From an uncultured delta proteobacterium (GTDB taxonomy: Bacteria > Desulfobacterota > WTBG01 > CAIYCZ01 > CAIRTM01), in assembly GCA_963804955.1 (NCBI GenBank), contig CAWDSQ010000032.1:64001-128000 (forward strand): a stretch of DNA of 64,000 bases, read 5' to 3'. Under the pieces are notes generated by a model. The model searched no databases. It worked only from the letters and a program-made list of their open reading frames with translations, and was not told where the DNA came from. Position 1 is the stretch's first letter; every line of letters begins with the position of its first letter. The translations under genes were made by a program, and so were the position numbers. This document shows, piece by piece, positions 3,480-21,817 of this stretch.

Positions 3480-3524
3480 TACCTGTTCCTCCCAATAAAG
3501 TTTATACTACAAAAACTCTATGAA

Positions 3525-5105
3525 TTAAAATTCATACCGCAGGCGGAAAATCAGGCTGTCCTTATGGGCATACGCATCTCCGACATACTCATTTCTTGGC
3601 GCCGCCATAAAACTTTGCGCCAATATCGGCCCGCCAGTGCTCGCCGGGGAACATATAGGTAAAGCACGGCACGATAAACCATTTCTGGCACATCAGGTTA
3701 TAGTTGCCGTTAAATACAAAAACCCAGGAGGTGTTGAACATTTCCTGCTTTAGAAAACCGGATAGCGGTCTGGGTATAGGGGTCGTCTCTGCGATGATTG
3801 TACCCGACATCGACAACAAGGTCTTCATCCATATTACGGATATACTCGACATAATAGGTTAAGCTGAGATCGGTAAATTTACCTGTGCCGATATGCCTGG
3901 GTCCACCAGGGAATCTCGAACTTGTCATTCCATTGAATCGCCACGCCCAGCATGTCATTCTTGGCCCTGTCATAGACGCCCTGTAATTTACCGTCAGTTC
4001 CCAGGTTGCCCGGATTGTCAAGCATATAGAACCATTCAAGGCGCCATACGGAGTTGTGCAGGGGCTGAATAACCGTCTGGGCCGTGCCGCCGAAGGTCTG
4101 ATAGCGTTTAAAGCGGAAAACATCGCCGCCCTTCCAGGCCTTGCCATTGGCGGGCTTATCAGGTATCAGGCCGACGACATTGGGGAGAGCATAATTGTTG
4201 CCATAGTCAACTGCGCGGTTGGCGTCTGCTATTGGATTGTCGCTCTTTGCATTCCAGTACAGCACGGACCAGTCTATGTCATAGGTATAGCCCTGAACTC
4301 TGAAGCCGAGCTCCCAGTTGTCGGTTGCCCATCCGGTTGGAGCATCGCGCATCCACTTGGACTGCTGCCAGTGGAAGATGCCGTCGGTATCGTACTTGGG
4401 ATTAAATGCGCTCTGGTTATGGGGCGTGCCCCAGTGGGTGCCTTCATAGGGAAGGTACTGCGGCTGATAATAGCCGGGATTGATGATATTCTCAAAAATA
4501 AGATTGCCGGGCAGCGATGACTGATAGGTGGTTCTGATCATCCAGAGGCCCTTCTTGATCTCTTCCCAGTTGTCGACGCCGGGCACGCCCAGGCGCAGGT
4601 CAAGGGGGTTCACGACATCGGCCACGCGCTGCACATCGAGCTGGCCCCAGATGACGATCTGCTTGCCGACGCGCACATCCCATGGGCCCTTCACAAAACT
4701 GACATAGGACTCCGTCACTATATCTTCAAACCTTCTTGGGCTCTGATATTTTTGAATATCATCGTGGGCCATAAACCGGTGGACTTTATCATCATAGGAT
4801 GGCGATGCTTCATACCAGTAGCGCAGGCCGTTGAACCAGGTGATGTTCATTTCGGGTGATTCTTTGAGCTTGTAGATGCTTTCAAAATACAGTGAGGTTT
4901 GAGCAAAATCGACTCGAGAATCGTGATACTTTTCCTCCCCCTTGTCCCAGCTGGTCCGGTAATAAACAGTCTCCTTGGCAAAGCCGCTTATCTCGAGCCT
5001 GCCGTCAAGAAACTGCTCCGATGCCAGCGCAGGCCTGCCGGTGCACATCAGTATGCACGCGCAGACTGCAAACGAGCAGAGTGCTGCTATGAAGCTTTTC
5101 CTCAT
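3525..5105 (-). CDS. DUF1302 family outer-membrane beta-barrel protein, frameshifted
   Basis: Signal peptide; RVGKQIVIWGQLD..RVADVVNPLD motif; C-terminal DSLIFRLRYEF barrel signature; adjacent to DUF1329. Confidence 0.75.
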
Positions 5106-5281
5106 GTTCCCTCCTTTTTCGAAAAATTAATCTTACAAGCCTATTACTTTTTCGTAAAATTTTGTTGAAAAAGTACCACACCAAAAAAAGGAATTCAATG
5201 ATTATCTAAACATTTTTACATTAAAATTTGAGCGCCATCTTTCTTCTTTCCTGCACCTACACGGGACTTCATGCCCGATTT

Positions 5282-5313
5282 AAAAAAAGCCCCCTGCCGT
5301 GAACAGGGGGCTT
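5282..5313 (-). terminator. Rho-independent terminator after RND gene
   Basis: AAGCCCCCTG/CAGGGGGCTT stem with T-tract on the minus strand. Confidence 0.65.
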
Positions 5314-5350
5314 GAAGGATCAATCTGACATTACGGCGTTATCCTGCACA

Positions 5351-7848
5351 TTATCCCCTGTCGCTGCGCGCAATGCCCTTTGGCTTAAAGAGCGCTACGA
5401 AGGCAGGAACAACATAGATCGTAGCAATCATGCTGCACAGCCCCATGATGATGAAAAGATTGCAGGTTACGGACAGCGGGCATAAAATGCGGCAGCGTAA
5501 AAGGTCCAAGAACATAAATAAATCCCACCAGTATGCTCATGGCAATATACATGACTCGCTTTGCCGGTCGTGCTCATGGCATCGGCTATGGCCTGGTCCC
5601 AGGATTTGCTGGCCGCATAGCCTGCAGCGATGCGGTTCAGCATATACAGCACACCGCAGACAAAGAGACTGTAGCCGATCATGATATACGGCAGTGTTTC
5701 AACCGTCAGAGGTGCCGTATTGGGCATGGACGAATACTTAAAGGTCATTGATGCGGCAAACAGCAGCGGCAGCAGCGAGATGTAAGCCGACCAGGCAACG
5801 AGCCGAAACGCACGGCTATTATGGCAGTGATTGCAAGAGTGGCGAAAATAAAAGTCCAGAAAAAATACATCCGGACACAATCGTTAACATCTGCCTGAAT
5901 GCCGATCGCGCCTGCGCCGATGCGGTAATACATATGCGGAAACTTATCGACCTGCGGTTTTTCAGGCAGCAGCGGCTCGGGCTTAGAGATCATGCTGTCA
6001 AGGCTGCGCATGAATGTGTCAGGATACTGCTCATCGCTCTGGCGGATGCCGAAGCGGGACTGCATGGGTTATGTACTCGCGGATCCGCTGCATGAGCGGT
6101 TTGATAACGCTTTCGGTTTTATCCCGGCAGTAAATATACATGCACAGGGCTTTATGATCCTCGTCGATGAATTTGTCCATGGCGCCGGGAGCCGCCATAT
6201 TGACGGTACTGCCAAACTGCATTTGAACCTGACCGTCGACGGCTGGCACAAATGTCCAGTTCGGATCGTTTTCATGGAGTCCGCGACCGCGTGCGGGCAT
6301 TGTCTGGTGCGCAAACACAGGGGCTGCCACAATGGGCCCCATTTTAGGATCCATGGGTGTGCGGCTCAGATACCGGCAGAATTCCATGGAGTCGCGCAGC
6401 ATGGCCGGATTATTCTCTAGCGCCATCTGTTCAGCGCCTTGCGCAATGATCAGCATCGGCGTTAAAAGCGAAAATCCAGCAAAACTCATACGGAATGCAT
6501 CCATATTGTAGCGGTGCCAGGGCAGCAGCGTCGAGTGAGCCGGGAGACGCATTGCCGTAGAAAATTTTATTCATGGAGGCAAGCCCCATGATCGTGCCAA
6601 GCAGGATGATGACGATAACGGCGTATTTGCCCCAGCCGCAGATCCAGCGTGCCGAGCGCTTCATGAATTTGGCTTCTTTGGATTTCTGCGGCGCAACCGG
6701 CATGTAGGTCAGCAGCGCAGGTACAAAACCGACGGCGATGATAAACGAAGCAAAAGCCCAGAAAATACCCGACAGGAATAATGGACGCAGACCCGGCAGG
6801 GGCGCAAGCGCGACCAGCGCAAGGCAGATGGCCGCAATAAGCATTGCCGTGGCGCAGGGGCCGTACAGCCCGATAATCGTGGCCTTTGCCGCCTTTATGG
6901 CATCAGAGCCTGCGGCACGTTCAGCGGCAAATCGCTTGATGAAAAATACGGCATTGGCCACTGCTATCATCGAGATAAACAGCGGCAGCGCAAACAGCGC
7001 GGGATCGAGATTGAATTTAAAGAAACCGAGGAAGCCAAGCCCCCAGATCGAACTAAGAATGCCCGGCCAGGACGGCAATAATAGCACCCTTCACGTCCCG
7101 AAGCGACAGAAACAGGATAATAAAAATCAGCACCACCGAAAGCGCGATCATTTTAAGCACAGAAGGTATCATGGATTTTATAAAGCCCTTTTCCACGGGC
7201 AGACTGTTGATCAGCACCCTGATATTCTTGTTTTCATATTTTCTGCGCAGATCCTGCAGCTTTTGAAAAATATCATCATAGTCAGCCTTTCCCTCCAGAA
7301 AGTCGGCCATTATGAGCGTTGTTTTGCTGTCAAAAGAAACAAGCACGGGATAGGGAATACCCTCATACACTTTTAAGCGGAGGTCATCCATCTCTGCCGG
7401 GTGTCTTGGGCAGGTCCGGAAACATGATGGAATTCATTTTCATACCGAAAGACGATATCTGAATGTCCTTCAGCTTGGAGGAGTACAGGTCGAACATCTT
7501 GTTGCGGTCCATACCGGGAAACAAATCAGGATTCCTCAAATCAGTATCGATGTCTTTCACCATCTGGAGCGTTTCATGATTAAAAATATCATCATAGGCG
7601 CCGCCATCCTCCTTATCGCGGACCTGCAGCGCAATATACAGCAGATTGGTGCCCCCGAATATTTTTCTGGCTTCGTCTTCAAGCTTGATATTGGGATAGC
7701 CTTCTGGCCGCAGGCCGGCGTCGATGGATTTAAAGCTCAGGCCGGTCGCAGCGGCAATCAGGAAAACAACCGTGAGAACGAAAATGCCCAGCACAACGGC
7801 CAGCCTTTTTTCTATAATAAAATCAGCAAAACGATTTTTCATGGTCAT
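5351..7848 (-). CDS. RND/MMPL family transporter, several frameshifts
   Basis: Pieces 7384-7905, 7053-7391, 6431-7087, 6031-6552, 5745-6065 and 5467-5880 give two TM bundles with periplasmic loops (FGGTNLLYIAL; AMSTTGKA); usual partner of DUF1302/DUF1329/YCF48. Confidence 0.8.
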
Positions 7849-7874
7849 AAACCCCTTTCTGAAAAGGATGGGAA

Positions 7875-9019
7875 TTAATACTGTTCCGGTAAAGACTTTC
7901 GCCAAAGGGCGCCAAACAAATTGAACGGCTTGAAAATTTTATCGGTGACATCTTTTGCCACGGGAAAATCCTTGACCGTGTAATAAATGCCCGCCCGGAA
8001 TTTCCAGGTCTTGCCGCCATCATCTGTGAGCACAATGGTATCGCTGGCTCCCACGGCAATGCCTTTATTGGGATTGATGAAAGCAATATCCCGCAGCCAC
8101 CAGCCGGTTTTGATAGCACCATCCTGAATTTTCCAGGACTTGCCGCCGTCATTGGACATAAACAGGGAGCCGCGGTCGCCGACCGCCCATCCTTTAGTTG
8201 CCTTTTATGAACAGGCTGTACACGCCGAGATTTTTCTCAGCCGTAAAGCTTTCCCAGGTGGCGCCGGCATCGGCGCTGTACAGAAACAGGGAATCCATCC
8301 CGCAGGCGACAAAGGTCGTTTTATCTTTTGCAATGATTCCATAGAGCGATTGGCGGGGTTTTTCAATTTCTTCATCAATGCTGGCCCGCTCAAATATCTT
8401 CGGCTGGATACTGGTCCAGGTCTTGCCGCCATCGACGGTTCTGAACATGGTGCCTGTCTCGCCGACGACAACACCGGTATTCTGGTCCACAAAAGCGACA
8501 TTGTTCAGAGTCTTGTCCTGCTCCTGGCCCTGCACGGACCAGGTGGCGCCGCCGTCCTGCGTATGAAGAATCAGGCCCATTTCACCGACAGCCCAGCCCA
8601 GCTTTTCATTCAAGAAAACAAATACCGAACAGATGTTTATCGGTATTTGTTTTTTGCTTTACCCAGGTTGCGCCGCCATCGCTTGTATGCAGCATGATGC
8701 CGCTGATACCGGCAACCCAGCCTACTTTGGCATTGAGAAAAACGCCGTCGACCAAGAAGACTGTTGACGCCTGAATTTTGCGCATTCCCAGGTTTCTCCT
8801 GCATCAGAAGAATGATAGATGACTCCGTAATTGCCGACCACCCAGATGTTTTTATCATCAGGGCGCAATCACGCCATGAAGATTCTCTTTAGTGACAGTC
8901 TTTACCGGCGGTTCCGGCTTGGCTGCGGCCTGCTCCGCAGCACCAGACCAACTGCTGATGCAAAACCCTAGCATGCACATGGTTGCCAATAAAACCCCAA
9001 GTCTCCATAGCTTCTTCAT
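7875..9019 (-). CDS. YCF48-like BNR/Asp-box beta-propeller protein, frameshifted
   Basis: Repeated GWAVG..G.ILHTQDGGATW / T.DGGKTW motifs; N-terminal signal or lipoprotein peptide. Confidence 0.85.
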
Positions 9020-9250
9020 CCATCCTTCTCCTTTATATTATTATGAAAATAATAAAATTAGATGAACCCATAGCTAACATCTACGCAGGGTACGCACAGC
9101 ATTAAAAGATTAGAAAAAAGCTTAACGGGATTATTATGTGTTGTTAAATACAACTTACTATCAGGGTACTGACATCGTCATATGCGTAGAAAAAAAGGGC
9201 TTGTTTTGTTTAAGCCCTGTTCACTTAAGGTCCCACATATTTTGCAGACA

Positions 9251-9314
9251 AAATTTTCTTGACAGAAAGTTGGTCATAGTTTATCTGTTTAGGAATCGTA
9301 AGTCAAGAAAATTT
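9251..9314. promoter_or_regulatory. Overlapping divergent sigma70-like promoters inside a perfect 13-bp inverted repeat
   Basis: AAATTTTCTTGAC (9251-9263) and GTCAAGAAAATTT (9302-9314); minus strand TTGACT-17nt-TAAACT; plus strand TTGACA with weaker -10. Confidence 0.55.
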
Positions 9315-9373
9315 AGGGCAATTCAGCCCAAATAAAATTGAACCATTCGCAAGATTACAGCTAGGAGGAAACA

Positions 9374-10736
9374 GTGAAAAGTGCATATGATCTTATAGTC
9401 GTCGGAGCCGGGCCTGCTGGACTGACCGCAGCCAAAATCGCAGCTGAAAACGGTCTTTCAGTTGCTCTGCTGGAAAGAAAAAACTCGGTTGAAGAGATCC
9501 TGAGAATGTGCGGCATGATGATTGTGTCGCTTTCCGGATCATACATGGGTGAACGCGTCGTTCTCAATGAAGATGCAGGGCTTCTCTGCTTCCCCAACAA
9601 CGGCTTCAGCGTAAAGTATGACGGCCCGACCAAGGACTTCTACACCTGGCAAATGTATTCGCCCAATGGCGAAATGTTCACTTTTGGAAATTATGCAGCC
9701 AATCTCGCAAAGGGCAAGGAAGGCCGTGCAAGCGCCGTATATGACAAAAGCTGGTTTCTGGCCGGCCTGCTCTCAGAGTGCAAAAAGCTGGGCGTCCAGG
9801 TGTTTACCGGTGAAAACGTCATTGATGTCCGCAAAAAGGCTGAGGGCGTTGAAGTGCAGACCGCCAGCGGCAAACATTTCACCGGCGCATTTGCCATTGC
9901 CGCCGACGGCCGCAATTCGCGGGTAGCCCGGGTTATGGGCATGAATAAAAACCGCGACTTTTACGGCTCCGTCACCTCGATCGGCTATGAAATGACCAAC
10001 CTGAATCTTCCTGAGCCCTATGCGCTGCATATGCCCCTTGTGCAGAGCGGCGATCCGCCCATGCTCGGCTTTATTTGCCCCAGGGCCTGGGACAATGAGG
10101 GTGAATACACCTGGCTGGTCATGATAACCAATGTCGATCCCAATACCGACCATGAAAGCCTTTTTGACCTGTTTACCCAGAAAAGCCGTTATGCCTCCTG
10201 GTTCAAGGGCGGCAAAAAGGTTCGCAAATGCGGCTGCGCCGGGAATATGTACTCGCCAATTATTCACCCTTTTAAAGACAATGTAATTTTTGCCGGTGAT
10301 TCGGGATGGTGCCAGGAAGCTGAAATGACCGGAGCAGTGATGAGCGGCTGGAAGGCAGGCAGCGCTGTCGTTCTTGCCATGCTTGAAGGCAAGCTCAATC
10401 AGCAGGGCGTACAAACATATCTTGACTGGTGGCGCACACGCCCATATCGAAAAGTGCGATTACAAAGTATTCCTGAAGAATCTCTATATGCCGGTGCTGT
10501 GCAACGACAAGGAAATCGACTACATCTTCAGCAAAATCAATTTCGTGCTTCCGACCGTCCTTGACCCGTATGAAGTGCCCGAAAACATTGGCAAAGCTTT
10601 GATGAAGATCATGCCCGACATCCAGAAAGAGCGCCCCGATCTGATTAAAAAAATGGCCGGGTTCAATGACCTGCCTCCTGAAGTCGTTCTGAAAAAAACC
10701 ATTCGTTCGGGATTCAACTGCAGCTTTACGACGTGA
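9374..10736 (+). CDS. FAD-dependent oxidoreductase, geranylgeranyl reductase/FixC-like family; frameshift near 10440
   Basis: YDLIVVGAGPAG, IAADGRNSRVA, VIFAGDSG...GAVMSG motifs; C-terminus in ORF 10374-10736. Confidence 0.8.
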
Positions 10737-10854
10737 TGATCAGACACTTTTAAATATTATATTGAAGCGTTCGGACGGCTACATGAAACCGTGCGAACGC
10801 TTTTATTTTACTGTTTGTCATTCGACCTAACACCACAGAAAAGGGAGAGGAACT

Positions 10855-11994
10855 ATGAAGCAAAACCGTATGGCTTTTATGATGGCGGCACTTTTGCTGG
10901 TAGTGTGCTGCGCCAGCACGGCACTGTCTGCCGAACCGAAAAAAGGTCTCCTTGTCTATGACTCTATTTACAGTTCAACGCCTGAAGTAGCCTACTGGCT
11001 CAAGGCCATCATCGGCAATGAACAGCCCCTTGATGTCAAAAAAATCGATCAGGTCATCACCGTCAAGCCCTATGATTACGTGATCATCGGCAGCTACTCC
11101 AAATGGGAAAAAGCATCCCCCCGCATTTACAAATTCATTGAAAAGAACCAGATGGAACTTGCCCAGAAGCAGGTCTGCTACTTCCTGCTCGGCGGCGACT
11201 GGGATGAAACCATGCTGCTGAAGGCTCCCGGGGCGCCGATTAAACTGATTGCGGGCAGAAACTATCTATTCGATATCAAGGAAAAATTCCCGAGTATCAA
11301 GCCGATCGTCATCGGCGGCTTCGGCGGCCGGCAGGTGATGCCCTCACTGAACGGACAGGACGGATTCATGATCTGGGTGCTGGAGCGCCTGTCACGCGAG
11401 GGCGCTCACTGGGTCGGCCTCGATATCTGGGAATCCCTGGTGCCCGCCCGTGTTGAAGTGTACGGCAATGAAATACGCACGAAGATCCTCGGCCTGGAGC
11501 CCCTGCCGCCTGCAGAGGTGCAGAAGTACCGCGGGTTCTGGAATTCGCTGCAGCCCGCATCGCTTGCCGATCCTTCAAAAGTCAAAACGACAAACCTGAT
11601 CTCAAAAGACAACGGCGAAACCTGGGTTCCCGTCGCCGAGCGGCCCTACACTCTTAAGCTCAGCTCAAAAAAATCATACTACTCGCGCTCAAGAATCAAG
11701 GCCGATCTGCCCACAACCGCCAAGCTTCTGGCCGAGTGGGCGAAAAAAGACGGCTTTGAGCTGAAGGAAGAACGGAAGGCCGACTACATGACCTGGTACA
11801 CGGCCAGTAAAAAGGTTGATGGCAAGGATGCCACTCTTTCTATCGTCATGGCCACCATGCCCGACGATCCGGGCAATGTGCACGTTTCCTTCCGGTCCTG
11901 GGAAAAACCGGAAAAGCGCAAGGCTCTTGAAGAATCGGCAGCCAAAGCCGAGCAGTTTATCTGGGCCGACGGCAGAAAGGTCGAAGGCAGATAA
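10855..11994 (+). CDS. Secreted flavodoxin-like protein (HemG/Flavodoxin_5-like N-domain) with extra C-terminal domain
   Basis: Signal peptide ending ALSA; LLVYDSIYSSTPEVAYWL...YDYVIIGS...YKFIEKNQMELAQKQVCYF matches the long-chain HemG-type flavodoxin pattern. Confidence 0.65.
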   Translation: MKQNRMAFMMAALLLVVCCASTALSAEPKKGLLVYDSIYSSTPEVAYWLKAIIGNEQPLDVKKIDQVITVKPYDYVIIGSYSKWEKASPRIYKFIEKNQMELAQKQVCYFLLGGDWDETMLLKAPGAPIKLIAGRNYLFDIKEKFPSIKPIVIGGFGGRQVMPSLNGQDGFMIWVLERLSREGAHWVGLDIWESLVPARVEVYGNEIRTKILGLEPLPPAEVQKYRGFWNSLQPASLADPSKVKTTNLISKDNGETWVPVAERPYTLKLSSKKSYYSRSRIKADLPTTAKLLAEWAKKDGFELKEERKADYMTWYTASKKVDGKDATLSIVMATMPDDPGNVHVSFRSWEKPEKRKALEESAAKAEQFIWADGRKVEGR

Positions 11995-12020
11995 CCAGGC
12001 ACTGCACTGCAGAATGTGAC

Positions 12021-12053
12021 AAGAGGCAGGCGCATGTCCTGCCTCTTTTTTTT
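12021..12053 (+). terminator. Rho-independent terminator
   Basis: AAGAGGCAGG-cgcatgt-CCTGCCTCTT plus T-tract. Confidence 0.7.
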
Positions 12054-12081
12054 CAAACAACCTTAGCAGGGAGGCAAATCC

Positions 12082-12861
12082 TTGAAGATAATAAAAATTC
12101 TCCTGTGGATCATAGCGGTGCTTGTTCTGATTATCGCAGCAATCGCCATCAGCACCCGGCTGGAGGGCGACAAGCAGTATGCGAAATACGCCGGAGCAAC
12201 CGCCCAAGCCCTCAAAGCTTTTCCTCTCAAACCCTATGAGGTCACAGAAAAGTACCGGCATGTCAGATCGCTGCCGCTCATGGACATATCGGTTTCCAGC
12301 AGCACCGGCGACCGCCTCGCCCGGGTAAATTCACTGGATGCCACGATGCTGATGTTTATGAAAATGTATACCCTCATGATCAGGCCGAGCTATGACTATA
12401 ATCTGCCCGTCATGTCTGTGGATTTCATTTTTCTGCCCTTTGGTAAAAGAATATATATAATTGAAATAATAGATCCGGCAAAAATTGATGACACAAACAA
12501 AAAAATCTTTTACGAAAAAATGAAAGCGCACTATGCCCGGGTAGCGGACTTTCCTTCAGCAGGAACCCGCGATTGGTATAAAGACTTTGTCACCGACTTC
12601 AGTATTCACAGTAAGGCAGACAGGAAGGATGATGCTCTGCTCCTGGAAGTCTACAAAACCTATCTCGAAGCCTACCTTGCAATGGCCCAAAATGCTCAAA
12701 AACTTCCTCCTGAAACCAGCCTCAAAATGAAGGAAGGCCTTGAAAAATATGTCTCAACCCTTCTCTCTCAGGGCGGACCGGCAGTGGATGTTTTTAAGAA
12801 AATTCTTGGCCCGGAAGGGCAGAAGGAATATGTGCGGACGGTTATGTTCGGGCTTGACTGA
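12082..12861 (+). CDS. Ferredoxin-dependent bilin reductase (PebA/PcyA/RCCR superfamily) homologue with N-terminal membrane anchor
   Basis: RPSYDYNLPVMSVDFIFLPFGKRIYIIE resembles the FDBR P..Y.LP..G.D core; C-terminal PAVDVFKKILGPEGQKEYVRTVMF resembles PA...L...FG.E.A..YI..VLF; TTG start after GGAGG. Confidence 0.65.
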   Translation: MKIIKILLWIIAVLVLIIAAIAISTRLEGDKQYAKYAGATAQALKAFPLKPYEVTEKYRHVRSLPLMDISVSSSTGDRLARVNSLDATMLMFMKMYTLMIRPSYDYNLPVMSVDFIFLPFGKRIYIIEIIDPAKIDDTNKKIFYEKMKAHYARVADFPSAGTRDWYKDFVTDFSIHSKADRKDDALLLEVYKTYLEAYLAMAQNAQKLPPETSLKMKEGLEKYVSTLLSQGGPAVDVFKKILGPEGQKEYVRTVMFGLD

Positions 12862-12884
12862 AAGTCGGCAGCAGGACAAGCTCT

Positions 12885-12920
12885 AAGCCGGAAGCACTTT
12901 CACGGTGCTTCCGGCTTTTC
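12885..12920. terminator. Hairpin/terminator between convergent genes
   Basis: AAGCCGGAAGCAC...GTGCTTCCGGCTTTT. Confidence 0.6.
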
Positions 12921-13705
12921 TTGTGTATGCCCGTATTTTAGAAATATTTCTTTAACGGCTTCTTCGGCTGCAACCATTTTCTGCTCATAATAAGCAATCT
13001 GCCGGTCAAAGCTCGACAGCGGATGAGTGAGTTTATAGCCGATAAACATCTGCTCGTGCCAGTCTTTTAACCGGGCGCCGGCGGTGCGGTCATAGTGTTT
13101 CTGCATAATAACCGCCTGCCGGGGCTGCCGGGGCGGAATACCGGGCATGTTCATGCCGGCCCTGCCCAGCACCAGCGTTGTCAGCGGCAGCACACCTTCA
13201 GGAAGCCCGAGCTTGTCCCTGAGATATGCTGCTGTCAAGCAGCCCTGCCCTGCCCGTCTCCGACAGCATAATGCTTCTGATACCCAGGGCCTCTGCAGCC
13301 ATATTCATGCTCATGGCAGCAAGTCCGGCATTGAAAATTGCGAGGCTCAAATTCACAAAAGGGGTATTCCTGAATTCAGGCAAAAAAGAATTCAGGCGGA
13401 ATATATCAGCGCAAATGAGTGACTGCATAGGCTCCTTTAAACGGTATGGGCCGGTCAAAGATCTCATGCCACTGCTCTTGTGTGAAAGTTATGAATGACC
13501 AGGTCTGGAGATTTACCGTACTGGGGGCAAACCGGCCCGCCTCAAGTATGGCCTGAATCTCCTCATCGCGCAGAGGCTCATCGCTGAATGACCGGCAGCT
13601 GCGGCGGGCAAATAAAAGCCGGATCGTCTCAGGAACCTCATGCAGGAGAGCTGCAGCGGGTTTCCCGGTAAAAAGAGTCGCAAAATTCCGCAGCCAATTC
13701 AGCAT
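12900..13705 (-). CDS. Nitroreductase family protein (NfsA/FRP-like), frameshifted
   Basis: RRSCRSF, APSTVNLQTWSFI, AAEALGIRS, LGLPEGVLPLTTLVLG. Confidence 0.85.
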
Positions 13706-13720
13706 ATGCGCGCCATGCTT

Positions 13721-14248
13721 TCATGATACAGTCACTGTGTAGATGCCCGGCAAACCCCTGAACTGTTCTTTAAAATCAAGGCCATACCCCACAACAAAGC
13801 CATCTTGAATTGAAAAGGCCGCGTAATCTATGGAGAGATTGTGGACGCGGGCTATCTGTTTTTCGATAAGGCAGCAGAGCTTTACGGATTTCGGGTTATG
13901 GCGCTGTACATGCTGCAGGAGATAGGCTGCTGTATGGCCGGTATCAATAATATCGTCGACAATAATAACATGCCTGCCCGTTATCTGGATACTGACATCT
14001 TTCTTCAGAATACAGGACCCCGATGACACCTGGGAAGATCCGTATGAGGAAACCTGCACAAAATCTATATCAGCATCAACCTTGAGATTTCTGGCAAGAT
14101 CCGACAAAAAAACAAATGCCCCTTTCAAAACTCCGATAAGAACAGGACGGCTGTTTGTATAATCAGAGGAAATCTGCTGTGAAAGGTCCCGCACACGCTG
14201 TGAAATCATTTCGCAGGAGAAAAGAGGTTCCAATGCCGGTGATTTCAT
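13721..14248 (-). CDS. hpt: Hypoxanthine phosphoribosyltransferase
   Basis: GVLKGAFVFLSDL, VIIVDDIIDTGHT, FVVGYGLD. Confidence 0.95.
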   Translation of the reverse strand: MKSPALEPLFSCEMISQRVRDLSQQISSDYTNSRPVLIGVLKGAFVFLSDLARNLKVDADIDFVQVSSYGSSQVSSGSCILKKDVSIQITGRHVIIVDDIIDTGHTAAYLLQHVQRHNPKSVKLCCLIEKQIARVHNLSIDYAAFSIQDGFVVGYGLDFKEQFRGLPGIYTVTVS

Positions 14249-14571
14249 ACTTACTGCACCCTGATGCAGCTTAACCTGTTGAATTCCCATAACGCTGTCC
14301 TGTCAATTCCAATAAGCAAAGCTTTACTCAACCTGTATTTTTTCAATTATTTGAAAAATCTTCATTTTTTAAAACGCTCAGCTTTTGAGCACAATGGCTG
14401 AAAGCCTCTGTTTTCGGCCTTTCGATAAATATTTCTACAAGGTTTTCCACAGGATACTAACATTTGGTGTTGATTATGCCGGGGCATCAATATCTTGTAA
14501 GGCAGTTGCTTCAAAACGCAAAATATGGCAGTAAGAAAAACAAACAGCATCTTATGTATCAGCGCATGCTT

Positions 14572-15474
14572 CTATCGCTGAACATAGCCGAACTTTTTTA
14601 GAGCCTTGATATTTTCGCGCCAGTGTTTCTCTACCTTTACCTGCAAATCCAGGTACACTCCCCCGTACCCCATAAACTGCTGTATCTCGAGCCGGGCATC
14701 GCGGCCGATCTTCTTTATCATGCTGCCGCCACTGCCGATAAGAATGCCTTTCTGCGAGTCTTTCTCTACATAAATAATAGCACGAATGAAGGCGCCGCCT
14801 TCTTCCCTTTCCTTCATATCCTCTATGACCACAGCGGTGCTGTAGGGTATTTCTTCCTGTGTATAGTGAAAAATCTTCTCCCGAATAAACTCGGCGATAA
14901 AATCACGCTGAATTTGATCGGATATAATGTCTTCGGGATAAAAGGCAGAAGCGACAGGAAGGCAGGAAACGGTTATATCAAGCAGTCTGTCCATATTCTC
15001 ACCGTTCAGGGCGGAAACAGGAACTATCTCGGCAAACTCCATCAGCCCCCGGTAGGTGTCGATGAGAGGCAAAAGCGCATCTTTGGCAACACGGTCAATT
15101 TTGTTGATAACCAGAAAGACCCTTTTCCCGGTTTTTTTAAGTTCGCGGGCAAGCTCAACCTCTGCATGGCGCGGCTTCTGGCATTCGACAAGCATATAAA
15201 TGATATCTGCCTCAGCAAATGTCATCTTTGCCGCAGCTACCATGAAATCGCCAAGCTTGTCTTTGGGGCTGTGAATACCTGCCGTATCAAGAAAGATAAT
15301 CTGTGCCTGCTCGGTTGTCAGGATGCCTTTGACGACGCTGCGTGTTGTCTGCGGCTTGGGTGAGACTATGGCAAGTTTTGAGCCGATAAGATGATTTACC
15401 AGGGTTGATTTTCCGACATTAGGCATTCCGGCCACGGAAACAAAGCCTGCCTTGAAACTTTCATGTTGTGACAT
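14572..15474 (-). CDS. era: GTPase Era
   Basis: GMPNVGKSTL, KPQTTR, NKID, EEIPYS, KH domain QKGILIG. Confidence 0.97.
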   Translation of the reverse strand: MSQHESFKAGFVSVAGMPNVGKSTLVNHLIGSKLAIVSPKPQTTRSVVKGILTTEQAQIIFLDTAGIHSPKDKLGDFMVAAAKMTFAEADIIYMLVECQKPRHAEVELARELKKTGKRVFLVINKIDRVAKDALLPLIDTYRGLMEFAEIVPVSALNGENMDRLLDITVSCLPVASAFYPEDIISDQIQRDFIAEFIREKIFHYTQEEIPYSTAVVIEDMKEREEGGAFIRAIIYVEKDSQKGILIGSGGSMIKKIGRDARLEIQQFMGYGGVYLDLQVKVEKHWRENIKALKKFGYVQR

Positions 15475-15695
15475 GGATTAACCAGAATAGATTTTAGTGC
15501 TGAAGTCAAAAAGCCCCCGCACAGGGCGGTGGCTTGATTTCGCCCTGAAAGGGCGAAAATCAAAAAATACGTATTTTTGAAGGCGCCTTCTTCAGGTTAG
15601 GCATCTCAATAGACGATGGGTACCTGAAGACAATAACCCGCCAAAATACTCCACCAGTCCTGGAAGGATCCAAAAAAATCTGATGGATCAGGCTT

Positions 15696-16385
15696 TTATT
15701 GTTTTGCCGATGCGCCCTGTCCCGATGCTGCCTGCTGCCCGGATTTTTTTTCGGAAATATCCATTCCCTCCTTTGCTTTCAGCTTATCGATAAGGGTTTG
15801 AAAAGAACCGTTGGCAAAAATCTCATTAAACTGTGTGCGGTAGTTGGCCACAAGCCCGACGCCTTCAATGGTAAGATCATAGACTACCCATCTGCCGTTT
15901 TTATTTATGAGCTTATAGTTGAGGGGCAGTTCCTTGTCATTGAGCAGAATCTTTGTCTCAACCAGGGCATAGCGCTCCTGCTCGATGGATTCGTGAAGAT
16001 AGGATATGTTTTTTACTGTAAAATCTTTCGACTCCTGCAAAAAGAGATCTATCTTTGAAATATAGGTGCGCTCAAGAAAATCGACAAAAATATCGATAAA
16101 CTGCTTCTGCTGCTCCGGGGTTATGTCGCGCCAGTGAGGGCCGAGGGTGCGCCGGGCCATTTCCTCCCAGTCAAATGTGCCTGAGGCAGTTTCATGAATC
16201 AGCCTGTTGCGCTCAGTTTTCTTCTCAGGCGCGGCATAGGCAGGATCTTTCAGCACTGTCAGGACCTTGTCCACAACCAGCTTGAGATTGTCGGTTATCT
16301 GCCCGGCTGAGGCAGACGATCCCAGATAAAAAAACACCGTCAGCGCTGCAACCGCTATGCGCATTCCCGCTCCTGCATGCTTCAT
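15696..16385 (-). CDS. mlaC: MlaC/Ttg2D phospholipid-binding protein
   Basis: FDWEEMARRTLG, WVVYDLTIEGVGLVANYRTQF. Confidence 0.92.
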   Translation of the reverse strand: MKHAGAGMRIAVAALTVFFYLGSSASAGQITDNLKLVVDKVLTVLKDPAYAAPEKKTERNRLIHETASGTFDWEEMARRTLGPHWRDITPEQQKQFIDIFVDFLERTYISKIDLFLQESKDFTVKNISYLHESIEQERYALVETKILLNDKELPLNYKLINKNGRWVVYDLTIEGVGLVANYRTQFNEIFANGSFQTLIDKLKAKEGMDISEKKSGQQAASGQGASAKQ

Positions 16386-16408
16386 GATATCTTTCCTCCA
16401 GCTGTGTC

Positions 16409-16849
16409 TTACACTTTTCCAAAAACAAACTTGGAAATAAGCTCTTCAATATCAACGGGCGGCTGTGTTTCACGAATCCTATCCCCGGTTTTCAGTATGA
16501 CATCGGAGCCTCCCGGAACGATATCAATATACTTCTCGCCCAACAGCCCCTTTGTTTTGATGCGGGCTATGGCATCTTCCTGCAGCTGCACAGTCCCGGT
16601 AACCGACAGCACGACTTTAGCCTTATAATTATCAAGGGCTATCTGCTTCACCCTGCCGATTTGAACTCCTGCTATTTCCACAAGAGCGCCGTTTTTAAGC
16701 CCGCTTATTGTGGGAAAGACCGCGGAGACCTCATACCCGTTAGATCCCATCACTTCCATCTTTGCATACCTGATTGACATATAGCCAAGACAGGCGATGC
16801 CGGCCAGTATAAAAAGGCCCACAACAAGTTCAAGAGTTCCTCTGCGCAT
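16409..16849 (-). CDS. mlaD: MlaD (MCE) lipid asymmetry protein
   Basis: GLKNGALVEIAGVQIGRV, IKTKGLLGEKYIDIVPG. Confidence 0.95.
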   Translation of the reverse strand: MRRGTLELVVGLFILAGIACLGYMSIRYAKMEVMGSNGYEVSAVFPTISGLKNGALVEIAGVQIGRVKQIALDNYKAKVVLSVTGTVQLQEDAIARIKTKGLLGEKYIDIVPGGSDVILKTGDRIRETQPPVDIEELISKFVFGKV

Positions 16850-16861
16850 ACCTGTTCTCCT

Positions 16862-17608
16862 TTATACGTAGTGAAGCGGTCCCTCAATGCTTCCTGATAA
16901 AAACTGCTGAAATGCGGGATTGCCCTGGCCGACTATTTCATCATAGGTTCCGTTAATGATGATACGGCCTTCATCCATCATGGCGATCTTCTGCACGATG
17001 CTGAACACGCGCGGAACATCATGAGTGACGATGATGCCGGTGAATCCCAGCCGGCGGTGGCACAGCTGAATGTAGTTGAGAATGCTCTGGCCGATAATGG
17101 GATCAAGCCCTGTGGTCGGCTCGTCGAACAGCATAATGGACGGCTGCATGATCATGGCGCGCGCCAGGGATGTGCGCTTGCGCATGCCGCCGCTGAGCTC
17201 AGCCGGATACTTGTGAGCATCATTCTTCAATCCCATATGCTCAAGCTCGGGAAAAACGCGGTCCCTGATTTCCGCCTCCTTCATAGCCGTCTTCTCCCGC
17301 AAGGGAAAGGCCACATTCTCAAAGACCGTCATAGAGTCGAACAAAGCGCCTTCCTGAAACAAATATCCGAATTTTTGCCGTATGGCTACCAGTTGCCTGC
17401 CGCGAAGGCTGCATATATTCTGATCATCGACAAAAATTTCGCCTTTATCGGGCTGCATAAGGCCGATGATATGCTTGAGCAGCACGCTTTTGCCAAGGCC
17501 GCTGCGGCCGATAAGAGCAAACATCTCGCCTTCGCGTATCTCAAGGTTCAGGCCTTTGAGAACCTGGTTGCCATTAAAGCTTTTGTATGCGTCACGAACG
17601 GTGATCAT
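16862..17608 (-). CDS. mlaF: MlaF ABC transporter ATPase
   Basis: GRSGLGKS, FQEGALFDSMTV, LSGGMRKR, DEPTTGLDP. Confidence 0.93.
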   Translation of the reverse strand: MITVRDAYKSFNGNQVLKGLNLEIREGEMFALIGRSGLGKSVLLKHIIGLMQPDKGEIFVDDQNICSLRGRQLVAIRQKFGYLFQEGALFDSMTVFENVAFPLREKTAMKEAEIRDRVFPELEHMGLKNDAHKYPAELSGGMRKRTSLARAMIMQPSIMLFDEPTTGLDPIIGQSILNYIQLCHRRLGFTGIIVTHDVPRVFSIVQKIAMMDEGRIIINGTYDEIVGQGNPAFQQFLSGSIEGPLHYV

Positions 17609-17611
17609 TGT

Positions 17612-18385
17612 TTAAAGCGAAATTGACGTTATAAAATAATCCCATACAAGAATCAGCACGGAAGATATGACCACGGACTCTGTTGTGGCCTTGCCAACGC
17701 CCTTGGCTCCGAATTCAGTAAAATAGCCCTTGTAGCAGCAGACCCACGAGACAATCAGGCCAAAGCTCAAAGACTTAGTTATCCCCATGGTGATATCCTT
17801 CATGTCGACAAAATTGCTCATTTCTCCGAAATAGGTGCCCTCGCTCACCCCAAGCAGCTTCACGCCGACAAGGTAGCCGCCCCAGATGCCGATCATGCTG
17901 AAAAATGCCCCCAGCAGGGGAAATGAAATAACCGCTGCAACCATATTGGGAACAACAAGATACCGGTAGGGATTAACCGCCATTATTTCCAGGGCATCGA
18001 TCTGCTCGGTGATGCGCATAATGCCGATTTCCGAGGCGAGCGCTGATCCTGCGCGGCCGGTTATCATGAGAGCCGATATCACCGGCCCGAGTTCGCGAAG
18101 AAGGGAAAGGGCAACTGTGGGCCCGAGCAGTGCTTCTCCGCCGAACTTGCTCAGGGCATAAAAAACCTGCAGCGCAAAGACCATGCCGGTAAAAGCGCCG
18201 GTCAGCAGCACAATGACCGTTGACTTGACGCCGATGAAGGTAATCTGCTCGAGCACCCGCTTGAATTTAAGCGGCGAGCCGAAAAGCCAGAAAAGCGCTG
18301 TCAGCAGAAACATGCCATAGGAGCCGAGCATTTCCAGCACACCCAGCACACCACGGCCTAATCCTCTGATACAGGAAATAAACAC
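17612..18385 (-). CDS. mlaE: MlaE ABC permease
   Basis: RELGPVISALMITGRAGS, MRITEQIDAL, GVGKATT. Confidence 0.95.
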   Translation of the reverse strand: MFISCIRGLGRGVLGVLEMLGSYGMFLLTALFWLFGSPLKFKRVLEQITFIGVKSTVIVLLTGAFTGMVFALQVFYALSKFGGEALLGPTVALSLLRELGPVISALMITGRAGSALASEIGIMRITEQIDALEIMAVNPYRYLVVPNMVAAVISFPLLGAFFSMIGIWGGYLVGVKLLGVSEGTYFGEMSNFVDMKDITMGITKSLSFGLIVSWVCCYKGYFTEFGAKGVGKATTESVVISSVLILVWDYFITSISL

Positions 18386-18590
18386 AGTTCTCCTTAAAAA
18401 AATCAGTCAAACAATTATATAGAGATTAGCCTTTCAGTACAAGCAAAAACACTGCATACTGTTTGAACGTGTACGCCCGACGGCGCTTGAATGAAAGTGG
18501 TTTCATACAAACACTTTACGCAGCAAATGGTGAACCGGAGAGTTTGAAAACTTGACACAGCAGCTTATTTTGTGTAGTTGTTTTTATTAA

Positions 18591-20091
<1,501 letters not shown>

Positions 20092-20099
20092 AGCCCTCA

Positions 20100-21653
20100 A
20101 TGCAGCTTGAACAGCAAAAGATTATCATTCTTGATTTCGGCTCTCAATACACCCAGCTCATAGCCCGCCGCGTCCGGGAAGCAAAGGTGTATTCCGAGAT
20201 ACATCCGTTTAACATCACGCTGGAAAAGCTCAAAGCGCTGAAACCAACCGGCATCATCCTTTCGGGCGGACCGTCAAGCGTCTATGATCAGGGTGCGCCC
20301 ATTATTGCTGCTGAAACATTTGACCTTGGCGTGCCGGTGCTGGGCATCTGCTACGGCATGCAGCTGACATCGCATCTGCTGGGCGGCAAGGTTGCATCCC
20401 TGCAGCAAGCGTGAATACGGCAAAGCAGAGCTCACCATCGACTCAAATGATGATCTTTTTAAAGACTTTGACACCGGGCAGCACACTCCAGGTCTGGATG
20501 AGCCACGGCGACCGCCTTGAAATTGTACCTCCCGGGTTTGAGTCCATCGGCCACAGCGGCAATTCCCCGTCTTGCAGCCATGCGCAACAAAGCGCGCCGC
20601 ATCTACGGCGTGCAGTTTCATCCGGAGGTTGTCCATACGCCCCAGGGACGCCGGATTCTGGAAAATTTCATTTTCACCATCTGCAGCTGCGAGCCTGTCT
20701 GGACCATGAAATCATTCATCCAGCAGTCCATCGAAAGCATCAGGGCAAAAGTAGGCGATAAAAAAGTCATTTGCGGCTGCAGCGGCGGCGTTGATTCAAC
20801 CGTGGCAGCCGTGCTGATAGATAAGGCAATAGGCCGCCAGCTGACGAGCATATTTGTCGATAACGGCGTTCTGAGAAAAAACGAATTTGAAACCGTTTCG
20901 CGCCTGCTGCGGGAGACATTCTCTATAAACCTTGTGGCAGTTGATGCCTCAAAGCGATTTTTGGACAAGCTTGCCGGCATTGACGACCCTGAGCAGAAGC
21001 GAAAAATAATCGGAAATGAGTTCATTTCCGTATTTGACGAAGAAGCGCGAAAAATCGGAAAAATTGATTTTCTTGCACAGGGAACCCTGTACCCGGATGT
21101 TATCGAAAGCGTCTCTTTTAAAGGGCCTTCGGCAACCATAAAGAGCCATCATAATGTCGGCGGCCTGCCTGAAAAAATGCATCTCAAACTTCTTGAACCC
21201 TTCCGGGAGCTCTTCAAGGACGAAGTCAGGGAAATAGGCAAAGAGCTTGGCATTCCTGATGATTTAGTACAGCGGCAGCCTTTTCCCGGGCCGGGCCTTG
21301 CCATACGCCTTATCGGGCCGGTGACTGAGCCGGATCTCAAGCTTCTGCGGGAGGCGGATGCCATAATTATTGAAGAATTTAAAAATGCCGACCTGTACCA
21401 CAGTGTGTGGCAATCCTTTGCCGTTCTGCTGCCCATCAAAACCGTTGGCGTCATGGGCGATGAGCGCACCTATGAAAAAGTCATCGTGCTGCGGGTTGTT
21501 GAAAGCGTCGATGGCATGACCGCCGACTGGGTAAAAGTTCCCTATGACCTTCTCGGCCGAATTTCAAACCGCATTATCAACGAGGTAAAAGGCGTCAACC
21601 GCGTTACCTACGATATCTCATCAAAGCCGCCAAGCACGATTGAGTGGGAATAA
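20100..21653 (+). CDS. guaA: GMP synthase (glutamine-hydrolysing), frameshifted
   Basis: [47 protein letters not shown]. Confidence 0.97.
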
Positions 21654-21725
21654 CCAGGCGCCCATTCTTTCGGTACCGTGTTCTGCAGCAAACAGCTGAA
21701 AAAAATTCGTTAAGCACTCTAATAG

Positions 21726-21760: not shown

Positions 21761-21817
21761 TTATAATTCCGCACGAAAAATCACCAGCCATAAGCATACA
21801 CTTCCAGGCCTGTCTGC

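Follow-up and report, generated by a model that had tools for sequence, protein, structure and literature searches.

Introduction

Characterised FDBRs are soluble enzymes that take electrons from cytoplasmic or stromal ferredoxin, and the papers considered here treat the family as tied to heme oxygenase, ferredoxin, and photoreceptors or antennae. The same fold is found in RCCR, a soluble plant enzyme that acts on a linear tetrapyrrole which does not come from heme oxygenase. As portrayed in PMC13193486, the known FDBR-fold families (FDBR, RCCR and CPO) all bind tetrapyrroles. Among the pre-PcyA genes described in PMC10151467, pre-1 and pre-3 occur with genes for HO, Fe-S, V4R and globin (BBAG) and pre-2 with those for a B12-binding protein and a globin. 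The word "transmembrane" is absent from the main text of this paper and of PMC13446030, and in neither of these pre-PcyA papers does that text mention a transmembrane form.

Here we describe a membrane-anchored FDBR-fold protein encoded in a stretch of 64,000 nucleotides from an uncultured delta proteobacterium (contig CAWDSQ010000032.1, positions 64,001 to 128,000 of the forward strand), which is called the window below.

A membrane-anchored member of the FDBR fold superfamily

The reading frame of the gene matches the preliminary description exactly, and comprises the following features.

12068-12074, + strand: Shine-Dalgarno AGGGAGG, 7 nt 5' of the TTG start
12082..12861, + strand: coding sequence for the membrane-anchored FDBR-fold protein of 259 aa, from the TTG start through the stop codon
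12097..12156, + strand: transmembrane helix, residues 6-25 (hydrophobicity, homologues, AlphaFold model)
12205..12849, + strand: FDBR domain (PF05996), residues 42-256 (Pfam, Foldseek, profile alignment)
12421..12423, + strand: codon of Asp114, equivalent to PcyA Asp105 (alignments; at least 90% conserved in 28 aligned family members)

Orthologous loci (n=11) have an ATG at the same codon, each behind a Shine-Dalgarno-like purine-rich motif (mostly GGAGG), so that the short N-terminal tail and the helix are no artefacts of the chosen start codon. Hydrophobicity is high across residues 6-25 (Kyte-Doolittle 3.19 over 19 aa), and in the AlphaFold model the transmembrane helix and the domain's first helix form one unbroken helix (2-44). 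The N-terminal membrane anchor that had been claimed for the protein is borne out by this hydrophobic segment and by its homologues: far from consistently lacking the helix, 116 of 120 keep a hydrophobic N-terminus.

Measured against the 31-bit cut-off of Pfam PF05996 (Fe_bilin_red), the domain passed with a score of 55.4 bits (E 8.8e-15, residues 42-256). Sequence matches to solved structures included GtPEBB (E 9e-8) and PebA (E 5e-5), and a profile of the family matched GtPEBB at 6e-15 and PcyA at 3e-9. With the AF2 model of the 259-aa protein (pLDDT 95, pTM 0.90), Foldseek placed GtPEBB best (E 5e-11, TM 0.72), and PcyA, HY2 and PebA gave TM values of 0.71-0.73. Matches to RCCR were weaker than those to FDBRs (E 7.5e-7, about 1e-6; TM 0.62-0.65), and Pfam RCC_reductase (PF06405) did not match the 259-aa protein at E <= 1. 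The PDB entries compared were 6qx6, 2x9o, 6kmd and 2g18/2d1e for PebB, PebA, HY2 and PcyA, and 2zxl and 3agb for RCCR. The FDBR-like domain read from the letters alone therefore holds up, since both the PF05996 score and the Foldseek comparison give the alpha/beta/alpha FDBR fold and not an unrelated one.

An assignment as a PebA, PebB or PcyA orthologue was rejected on the NCBIfam equivalog scores (PebB 48.7 versus 283, PebA 43.1 versus 263, PcyA 16.5 versus 206); across the PebB, PebA and PcyA models used, the cut-offs range from 206 to 327 and the scores from 16 to 49 bits. When the nearest cluster representatives (about 200 aa or more) were labelled with NCBIfam, one of 118 was a true PebB and the others received no name. 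Relatives in the ESM Atlas were likewise FDBR-like clusters without names, from Bacillota, Thermodesulfobacteriota and Actinomycetota. Our tree was made from unlabelled representatives, paralogues of the same genome and one PebB, and holds no named pre-PcyA sequences. Cyanophage FDBR matches were also found and were left out of the tree. The protein is thus tethered to the membrane by a single pass and falls within the FDBR fold superfamily, in an uncharacterised clade which we refer to as the TM-FDBR family.

Active-site residues

Asp114, the Asp of the SVD motif singled out in the preliminary description, indeed falls on the catalytic Asp that PebB, PebA and PcyA have in the alignments. Invariant in 28 sequences are N107, P109, R123, E128, D131, S174 and the G231-A234 motif. 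It had further been proposed that a Glu replaces the second Asp of the family, and this stands only in part: Glu128, on the strand IEIIDP, aligns with the Asp of the GtPEBB strand "aiDmqP", but the position of the mechanistic second Asp (AtHY2 Asp256, PebS Asp206 and NosPcyA Asp217 in Table 2 of PMC13446030) is taken by Gly232, inside the invariant GGPA motif.

Positions were mapped through an alignment with Nostoc PcyA onto the same table as given in PMC13446030. Thr97 stands at the position of PcyA His88, Leu85 at that of Glu76 and Gly232 at that of the distal Asp of PebA, PebS, PebB and HY2; none of the second proton donors of the known FDBR types (PcyA His88/Glu76 or the distal Asp) is kept. 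According to the results presented in PMC13446030, pre-PcyA enzymes without His88 and Glu76 are active two-electron reductases, and active pre-3 enzymes are likewise devoid of second proton donors.

Distribution, paralogues and the search for a bilin source

In a sample of 301 genomes of the phylum, the TM-FDBR family was found in 10, all of one order of Thermodesulfobacteriota (the genome of the window, all 7 sampled from its family and both sampled from a sister family), and in 0 of the 291 others. The TM-FDBR family, PF05996 and the family of the flavodoxin-like neighbour co-occur in these same 10 genomes and nowhere else among the 301. Each holder genome carries at least 6-9 FDBR-like paralogues. 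Nearly every paralogue has flavoprotein genes beside it. In the paralogue loci of the window's genome the genes come in the orders DUF1329, Ycf48-like, 607-aa protein, FDBR-like and PNPOx-like; MMPL, PNPOx-like, NmrA-like and FDBR-like; FAD enzyme, PNPOx-like and FDBR-like; and FDBR-like and then FMN_red. In this genome, too, a 2x[4Fe-4S] ferredoxin domain is fused to one of the paralogues.

Heme oxygenase (PF01126) was detected in 0 of the 10 holder genomes by HMM searches of the MAGs. In the genome of the window, which is 87% complete, HutW/ChuW stayed below the cut-off in these searches, and domains of the HugZ-type DUF2470, HemS, phytochrome PHY and phycobiliprotein kinds were not found; such searches of MAGs leave room for an unrecognised ring-opening enzyme or an imported substrate. 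Anaerobic heme degradation of the ChuW/HutW type was rejected as a source of linear tetrapyrroles, with a best match of 152.8 bits against a cut-off of 400. The bilin substrate considered in the preliminary description has become doubtful, because heme oxygenase was found in none of the holders and a known bilin source or acceptor was not found in the genome itself. Since neither a source nor a use of bilins is detectable in the holders, uncultured bacteria of the sulfate-reducer type, the substrate is probably another greasy, pigment-like molecule.

Gene neighbourhood

The TM-FDBR gene is surrounded by genes for putative redox and envelope proteins and by two hairpins.

5357..7848, - strand: RND-type transporter with a weak ACR_tran match (orthologues have about 829 aa; read here in at least five frame pieces)
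7878..9019, - strand: Ycf48-like BNR protein (PF14870 in orthologues; several frames here)
9374..10736, + strand: geranylgeranyl-reductase-family (GGR-like) FAD oxidoreductase (453 aa in orthologues; two frames here, shift near 10440-10453)
10855..11994, + strand: Flavodoxin_5-type protein, 379 aa (signal-like N-terminus, C-terminal alpha/beta domain; neighbour in most loci)
12021..12047, + strand: terminator-like hairpin between the flavodoxin-like and FDBR-fold genes (10-bp stem, then a T run)
12885..12917, + strand: terminator-like hairpin 3' of the FDBR-fold gene (14-bp stem; 24 nt past the stop codon)

The GGR-like, Ycf48-like and RND genes of the window appear frameshifted. Of 35 loci, window included, 27 contain the flavodoxin-like gene, which is the immediate upstream neighbour of the TM-FDBR gene in 23; it is absent from the subclade L014, L037 and L040. 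A GGR-like gene occurs in 20 of these loci, an RND gene in 13, a Ycf48-like gene in 13 plus the window, TetR in 10, DUF1302 in eight and DUF1329 in five. Neither DUF1302 nor DUF1329 was detected among the clustered ORFs of the window (3001-22000), and Pfam scans of the neighbours showed no HO, Fe-S, V4R or globin genes.

The flavodoxin-like protein scores 40 bits with Pfam Flavodoxin_5 (cut-off 27), has a flavodoxin fold by Foldseek and conserves a Y-G/S-S-T motif resembling a phosphate loop. A hydrophobic, signal-like N-terminal segment is present in 19 of 23 aligned orthologues, most of which end it with A-x-A just before the first strand. The proposal of a secreted flavodoxin next to the gene is thus supported: the neighbour is flavodoxin-like and bears a signal peptide of the Sec type. 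No twin-arginine motif was seen in its N-terminus; Sec export would therefore take the protein across the membrane unfolded and free of cofactor, which weakens a role as FMN electron donor. Of the flavodoxin-like paralogues adjoining TM-FDBR genes, three clear ones have no signal peptide (L018:8754-9767, L021 and L024; a fourth, L032, is ambiguous), and none was found on the GGR-like protein. A complex prediction with the mature flavodoxin-like protein (27-379) and the FDBR domain (26-259) gave a score of 0.01 against a mark of 0.32, a result that has no bearing either way on binding.

The hairpin between the flavodoxin-like and FDBR-fold genes is retained in the four closest loci (L009-L012), so that co-transcription of the two cannot be assumed. 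Three metatranscriptome runs contain 5-8% of the sampled words and yielded no more than five contigs, 151-175 nt long; every one falls within the flavodoxin-like gene (11266-11943) and the FDBR-fold gene is left uncovered, a coverage too thin to infer transcription or read-through.

Proposed function and alternative readings

Building on the established fold, anchor, residue conservation, neighbourhood, phyletic distribution and absence of known bilin sources and acceptors, we tentatively favour a membrane-tethered reductase of a hydrophobic substrate that uses co-encoded flavoproteins as electron source, a proposal to which we give a little less than even weight. In this best reading the protein is not a heme-oxygenase-dependent phycobilin synthase. 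The domain would most likely carry out a single two-electron reduction of one double bond, with Asp114 as the central proton donor. Rather than a dedicated soluble ferredoxin, the GGR-like FAD enzyme and the neighbouring Flavodoxin_5-type protein would probably supply the electrons, and transport of the substrate or product across the envelope would probably fall to the adjacent AmeCD-like RND/Ycf48-like system. The substrate should be hydrophobic and membrane-partitioning, most plausibly of the tetrapyrrole type. This putative class rests on a prior from the fold, and the neighbours (a GGR-like enzyme and a candidate HAE3 RND transporter) may point to isoprenoid-like hydrophobes as much as to tetrapyrroles.

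The side of the membrane that the domain faces is read differently by two charge heuristics. The K+R count is higher in the C-terminal flank than in the N-terminal tail in 102 of 124 proteins, which would make the domain cytoplasmic, whereas net charge is higher on the N-terminal side in 72 of 121 family members and favours the N-in orientation. If the domain is cytoplasmic, the exported flavodoxin-like protein would lie on the opposite side of the membrane. An N-in, type II signal anchor would instead place the domain in the periplasm, where a bilin-type molecule would be reduced, or simply bound, and the Sec-exported flavodoxin-like neighbour would serve as its donor or partner. We regard this arrangement as doubtful. 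It is consistent with K/R in the short N-terminal tail (107 of 121 family members), with a mostly signal-bearing flavodoxin-like protein encoded directly upstream in most loci, and with neighbours that are envelope proteins (Ycf48-like, DUF1329, DUF1302 and RND). In addition, a separate Bacillota-type FDBR-like clade is also anchored and has K-rich N-terminal tails with 3-10 K/R, which makes extracytoplasmic FDBR-fold domains plausible. Besides the K+R count, however, K/R within five residues after the helix in 121 of 121 family members argue against it, as does one subclade whose helix is preceded by no K/R and followed by RAR. The expected FMN-free export of the flavodoxin-like protein, its paralogues devoid of signal peptides, a GGR-like partner that also has none and the failure to detect a bilin source point the same way. 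Longer fused homologues (455-2000 aa) were searched at E <= 1e-5 and none was found, which is weak evidence. We consider it rather unlikely that a periplasm-facing FDBR domain acts as a radical-type double-bond reductase, fed by the Sec-exported flavodoxin-like protein, in an O2-independent, lineage-specific pathway of sulfate-reducer relatives that processes pigments of the tetrapyrrole type and is distributed across many paralogues. Such a protein would be the first enzyme of the bilin-reductase fold known to act beyond cytoplasm or stroma, and possibly a window on the origins of FDBRs before oxygenic photosynthesis.

The domain might also be a non-catalytic, membrane-tethered ligand binder whose FDBR pocket passes a hydrophobe to or from RND/Ycf48-like transport, which appears decidedly unlikely to us. 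The loss of every second proton donor of characterised FDBRs would agree with a binding role, as would the candidate HAE3-type transporter genes that recur in the window, 13 related loci and two of the paralogue loci; moreover, one Foldseek match is to a chain of the FDBR fold, named PcyA, within a solved motor complex of the chloroplast membrane (8xqw_H, 8xks_P). However, conservation of the central Asp and of several polar residues is what an enzyme would show, flavoprotein genes stand beside nearly every paralogue, and the pre-PcyA enzymes reported in PMC13446030 remain active two-electron reductases without His88 and Glu76. Very unlikely, in our estimate, is a cytoplasm-facing, early-branching bilin reductase resembling a "pre-PebA/PebB", which would take electrons from ordinary ferredoxin and reduce a linear tetrapyrrole, biliverdin or another, that is either imported or formed by some unrecognised enzyme. 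Sequence and profile comparisons give PebB as the best match, then PcyA and PebA, which suggests such a reductase; Thr and Asp at the His88 and Asp105 positions are those of the active pre-3 enzymes as described, and the paralogue fused to a ferredoxin domain fits as well. It would nevertheless leave the membrane anchor unexplained, and both the genomes, with no heme oxygenase detected in any holder and no ChuW/HutW, HugZ, HemS, phytochrome or phycobiliprotein-like acceptor in that of the window, and the Pfam scans of the neighbours, which showed none of the pre-PcyA companions HO, Fe-S, V4R and globin, speak against it.

The results show a conserved, membrane-anchored FDBR-fold branch inside a lineage-specific expansion (at least 6-9 paralogues per genome). 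This branch occurs in anaerobes devoid of a detectable bilin source or acceptor, among genes for flavoproteins and hydrophobe transporters. If the proteins are enzymatically active, FDBR chemistry would extend to new substrates and new electron donors. They could supply the early-branching FDBR relatives that, as stated in PMC13446030, specialists call still missing, and could hint at a so far unrecognised way in which anaerobes deal with tetrapyrrole-like or isoprenoid pigments in sediments.

Comparison with known systems

With PebB, PebA, HY2 and PcyA the protein shares the alpha/beta/alpha fold (TM about 0.72), the Pfam score and the central catalytic Asp. In contrast to these enzymes, it has an N-terminal transmembrane helix and hence would not be soluble, Thr97, Leu85 and Gly232 replace His88, Glu76 and the distal Asp, and its equivalog scores stay below the cut-offs. 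Moreover, its hosts have no detected heme oxygenase or bilin acceptors, and its neighbours are flavoproteins and an RND transporter. RCCR has the same fold, but the TM-FDBR protein has no PF06405 match and resembles RCCR less in structure than it does the FDBRs. The neighbouring gene product recalls HemG and the Flavodoxin_5 family in its Flavodoxin_5 score, flavodoxin fold and phosphate-loop-like motif. It differs from HemG in scoring 22 bits against an equivalog cut-off of 142, in its Sec-type signal peptide and in an extra C-terminal domain of about 180 aa, and its flavin binding is putative.

AmeABCD-type HAE3 RND systems handle hydrophobic isoprenoids, as described in PMC6394551. The AmeABCD genes of Castellaniella defragrans, as presented there, resemble the loci studied here through DUF1302 outer-membrane, DUF1329 LolA-like, Ycf48/COG4447-like periplasmic and RND genes (PMC6394551). 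This likeness is compositional only; the local RND is a weak ACR_tran match and a candidate for the HAE3 class and for AmeD orthology. DUF1302 and DUF1329 occur in just eight and five of the 35 loci, and the AmeABCD description in PMC6394551 mentions no FDBR-like gene. In contrast to the pre-PcyA genes, the TM-FDBR genes showed none of the HO, Fe-S, V4R, BBAG globin or B12-binding genes among their conserved neighbours. With pre-1 and pre-2 as well as pre-3, as these are described in PMC10151467 and PMC13446030, the protein has in common that it is an FDBR-family protein of a non-photosynthetic bacterium, and with pre-3 it further shares, in the same accounts, a Thr in place of His88, an Asp corresponding to Asp105 and the loss of the distal Asp.

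A membrane-tethered protein with the bilin reductase fold

The window protein is a real, conserved and membrane-tethered protein with the fold of the ferredoxin-dependent bilin reductases (FDBRs) and lies outside every characterised FDBR orthologue group. Its open reading frame was present where the preliminary description had placed it, downstream of a flavodoxin-like gene:

10855-11994, +, flavodoxin-like neighbour (Flavodoxin_5-type), 379 aa
12082-12861, +, membrane-anchored FDBR-fold protein (TM-FDBR), 259 aa, TTG start, AGGGAGG 7 nt upstream

Eleven orthologous loci have an ATG at the same codon as this TTG, each behind a similar purine-rich Shine-Dalgarno motif, and the very short N-terminal tail and the hydrophobic helix are therefore considered genuine. 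The proposed N-terminal anchor was recovered as a strongly hydrophobic segment at residues 6-25. A word-indexed search returned 167 homologues; among the 120 listed, nearly all were 259-270 aa long and named only "hypothetical", and 116 carried an N-terminal hydrophobic helix; of the other four, two are fragments and two, of 303 aa, seem to be extended at the N-terminus.

TM-FDBR matched Pfam PF05996 (Fe_bilin_red) with 55.4 bits (cut-off 31), and phmmer matched it to the solved GtPEBB (E 9e-8) and PebA (E 5e-5). A profile built from 28 TM-family members reached GtPEBB (6e-15), PcyA (3e-9), PebA (3e-7) and HY2 (3.5e-6). The AlphaFold2 model based on the 28-member alignment (mean pLDDT 95, pTM 0.90) bore out the FDBR fold in the structural comparison suggested earlier, as Foldseek against the PDB returned GtPEBB, PcyA, HY2 and PebA at a TM-score of about 0.72, followed by RCCR and PebS and, weakly, coproporphyrinogen oxidase. 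Residues 2-44 form a single continuous helix in this model, so that the membrane helix passes straight into the first domain helix.

Active-site positions were mapped by alignment to Nostoc PcyA and with the equivalent-residue Table 2 of Frascogna et al. 2026 (PMC13446030).

Characterised active-site residues and their equivalents in the TM family
PcyA Asp105: Asp114, the "SVD" Asp, at least 90% conserved
PcyA His88: Thr97; pre-3 enzymes also have Thr
PcyA Glu76: Leu85
Distal Asp of HY2, PebS, PebA and PebB: Gly232, within an invariant GGPA motif

The Glu that had been noted in place of a second Asp does exist as Glu128, opposite the Asp of the next GtPEBB beta strand in the alignment; the second Asp as defined by mechanism is a different position. 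Among the 28 TM-family members, N107, R123, E128, D131 and S174 are further invariant polar residues and H176 is nearly invariant. This conserved polar pattern suggests a specific pocket and would be compatible with an enzyme; that TM-FDBR is instead a non-catalytic binding protein seems rather improbable.

Relatives and distribution

An exhaustive search of representatives yielded 206 clusters at E <= 0.001, and one of 118 cluster representatives was a true PebB in an NCBIfam scan (E <= 1e-40). The window protein itself was rejected as a PebB, PebA or PcyA orthologue, with 16-49 bits against equivalog cut-offs of 206-327. The FastTree phylogeny comprised 155 rows, namely 28 TM-family members, 7 paralogues from the window's own genome and 120 representatives of at least 200 aa, shorter ones being dropped (SH-like support). 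The core TM family grouped as 22 rows with support 99, nested within a broader clade (38 rows, support 97). Another clade, with 106 rows and support 99, was made up largely of soluble proteins about 215 aa in length, and 17 of its members have N-terminal anchors; clusters like those of this clade are assigned to Bacillota in the ESM Atlas. Many of these anchors have K-rich N-terminal tails, with 3-10 K/R on 12 of 20 checked. Such a tail is a classical N-in signature, and its occurrence in a separate clade indicates that membrane anchoring arose at least twice among FDBR-like proteins. For this K-rich anchored, probably Bacillota clade, an extracytoplasmic FDBR-fold domain is predicted from sequence, in a location without ferredoxin. 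Anchors with very K-rich tails were seen in its representative-library members P0147, P0150, P0155, P0156, P0165, P0176, P0235 and P0249.

Within the phylum, the TM family (E <= 1e-30) occurred in 10 of 301 sampled genomes, which are kin, so that such counts are not independent events. Besides the window's own genome, the holders were all 7 sampled genomes of its family and both of those sampled from a sister family within that order; the remaining 291 genomes of the sample gave no match. The distributions of PF05996, with 6 to at least 9 matches per holder genome, and of the flavodoxin-like family were identical to it across the 301 genomes. The 34 loci compared with the window came from species-representative genomes (Thermodesulfobacteriota, delta-proteobacterial or unspecified "Proteobacteria" MAGs, one "uncultured bacterium" and one Spirochaetes MAG). 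Eight PF05996 genes lie above the cut-off in the 4.26-Mb own genome, and only the copy in the window is anchored. One paralogue (L047:6515-7501; C20:76598-77584; 329 aa) fuses an N-terminal 2x[4Fe-4S] ferredoxin domain to an FDBR-like domain; it is preceded by MarR, SDR and ATC_hydrolase-like genes and adjoined by a divergent FAD enzyme. The own-genome FDBR-like paralogues adjoin DUF1329, Ycf48-like or MMPL genes and also PNPOx-like, FMN_red, NmrA-like and FAD-dependent proteins, with MarR in one case.

Gene neighbourhood

Gene families near TM-FDBR, from clustered open reading frames of 35 loci (34 and the window)
Flavodoxin_5-type protein, 360-390 aa: 27 of 35 loci, directly upstream on the same strand in 23
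Geranylgeranyl-reductase-family (GGR) FAD enzyme, 453 aa: 20 of 35 loci
RND-type transporter, about 829 aa: 13 of 35 loci
Ycf48-like BNR protein (PF14870): 13 loci and the window
TetR regulator: 10 of 35 loci, not in the window
DUF1302: 8 of 35 loci
DUF1329/LolA-like: 5 of 35 loci

PNPOx-like and FMN_red genes are also present at more distant TM-family loci. The adjacent secreted flavodoxin of the preliminary description held up: the neighbour has a flavodoxin fold (AF2 pLDDT 79.5; Foldseek E about 5e-5) with a conserved Y-G/S-S-T loop, and export is predicted from an N-terminal hydrophobic signal-like segment in 19 of 23 aligned orthologues, usually with an A-x-A end right before the first strand. 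A twin-arginine motif occurred in none of the 23. Three flavodoxin-like proteins adjoining TM-FDBR genes (L018:8754-9767, L021:9578-10654, L024:1446-2459) are clearly without a signal peptide, and that of L032 is ambiguous because the locus is frameshifted. The family is thus predicted to have both exported and cytoplasmic forms; at L018 one signal-bearing and one signal-less protein flank the FDBR gene. A second full-length family copy lies at C22:108137-109240 of the own genome. In a subclade of 262-aa proteins (L014, L037, L040), the GGR-like gene is followed directly by TM-FDBR without a flavodoxin-like gene, and A/S-G-N/S stands in place of the E-G-D motif that otherwise follows the helix.

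A terminator-like hairpin separates the flavodoxin-like gene from TM-FDBR, and four neighbouring genes are each read in at least two frames relative to intact orthologues:

5357-9019, -, RND and Ycf48-like genes
9374-10736, +, GGR-like gene
12021-12047, intergenic hairpin
12906-13705, -, nitroreductase gene

The strong G+C-rich hairpin is shared by the five closest loci (window, L009, L010, L011, L012) with base changes that preserve the stem. A T run comes after it in three of these (window, L010, L011), and loci with a 7-48 nt gap have no such hairpin. A further hairpin follows the TM-FDBR stop codon. The many indels may reflect either errors of assembly or gene decay, the former looking more likely.

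Topology and possible function

The preliminary description had proposed an N-in topology with a periplasmic domain. The 15 residues after the helix contain more K+R than the N-terminal tail in 102 of 124 proteins (18 equal, 4 reversed), K/R occurs within 5 residues after the helix in all 121 short-tail proteins, and in a subclade to which L014 and L040 belong, RAR or KAR follows the helix and no K/R precedes it; together, these features favour a cytoplasmic domain. On the other side, N-in is favoured by net charge for 72 of the 121 proteins (25 equal, 24 reversed), K/R is kept in the N-terminal tail of 107, the usual flavodoxin-like partner is predicted to be exported, and most other conserved neighbours are envelope proteins. 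The GGR-like enzyme, like the three flavodoxin-like paralogues named above, lacks a signal peptide. The odds between a cytoplasmic and a periplasmic domain are roughly even, and the periplasmic model as proposed is considered unlikely.

Heme oxygenase (PF01126) was found in none of the 10 holder genomes (nine 93-100% complete, own genome 87%). For HutW/ChuW, the own genome scored no higher than 152.8 bits (cut-off 400), and in it DUF2470 (HugZ-type), HemS, phytochrome PHY and phycobiliprotein domains gave no match. A genuine early-branching bilin reductase with an unrecognised bilin source is the least probable reading of TM-FDBR. Every known family with this fold binds tetrapyrroles, according to an excerpt of PMC13193486, and pre-PcyA enzymes without His88 and Glu76 are described as active two-electron reductases in sections of PMC13446030; together these favour a two-electron reductase. 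Our preferred, still tentative reading is that TM-FDBR, acting at the membrane, would carry out a two-electron reduction of a hydrophobic substrate, probably of tetrapyrrole type, supplied by the co-encoded flavoproteins and linked to the RND-type hydrophobe transporter.

The word "transmembrane" is absent from the main text of both pre-PcyA papers (PMC10151467, PMC13446030), titles and abstract openings of literature on bilin reductases and transmembrane helices revealed no bacterial anchored FDBR, and PF05996 or Fe_bilin_red appeared only in unrelated work. A chain of 406-555 aa named PcyA (PDB 8xqw_H / 8xks_P; Foldseek E 1e-8; hmmsearch match) has the same fold and is an FDBR-fold protein inside a membrane complex, the Chlamydomonas Ycf2/Orf2971-FtsHi import motor. 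Unlike pre-PcyA, TM-FDBR does not have HO, Fe-S, V4R and globin companion genes among its neighbours. Its RND, Ycf48-like BNR, DUF1302 and DUF1329 neighbours correspond in composition to the AmeABCD tetrapartite HAE3 RND system, which, in the sections of PMC6394551 consulted, exports monoterpenes and belongs to a family including the hopanoid transporter HpnN; DUF1302, DUF1329, BNR and RND genes also show co-fitness in Pseudomonas, according to part of a preprint (bioRxiv 10.1101/2020.07.04.188060).
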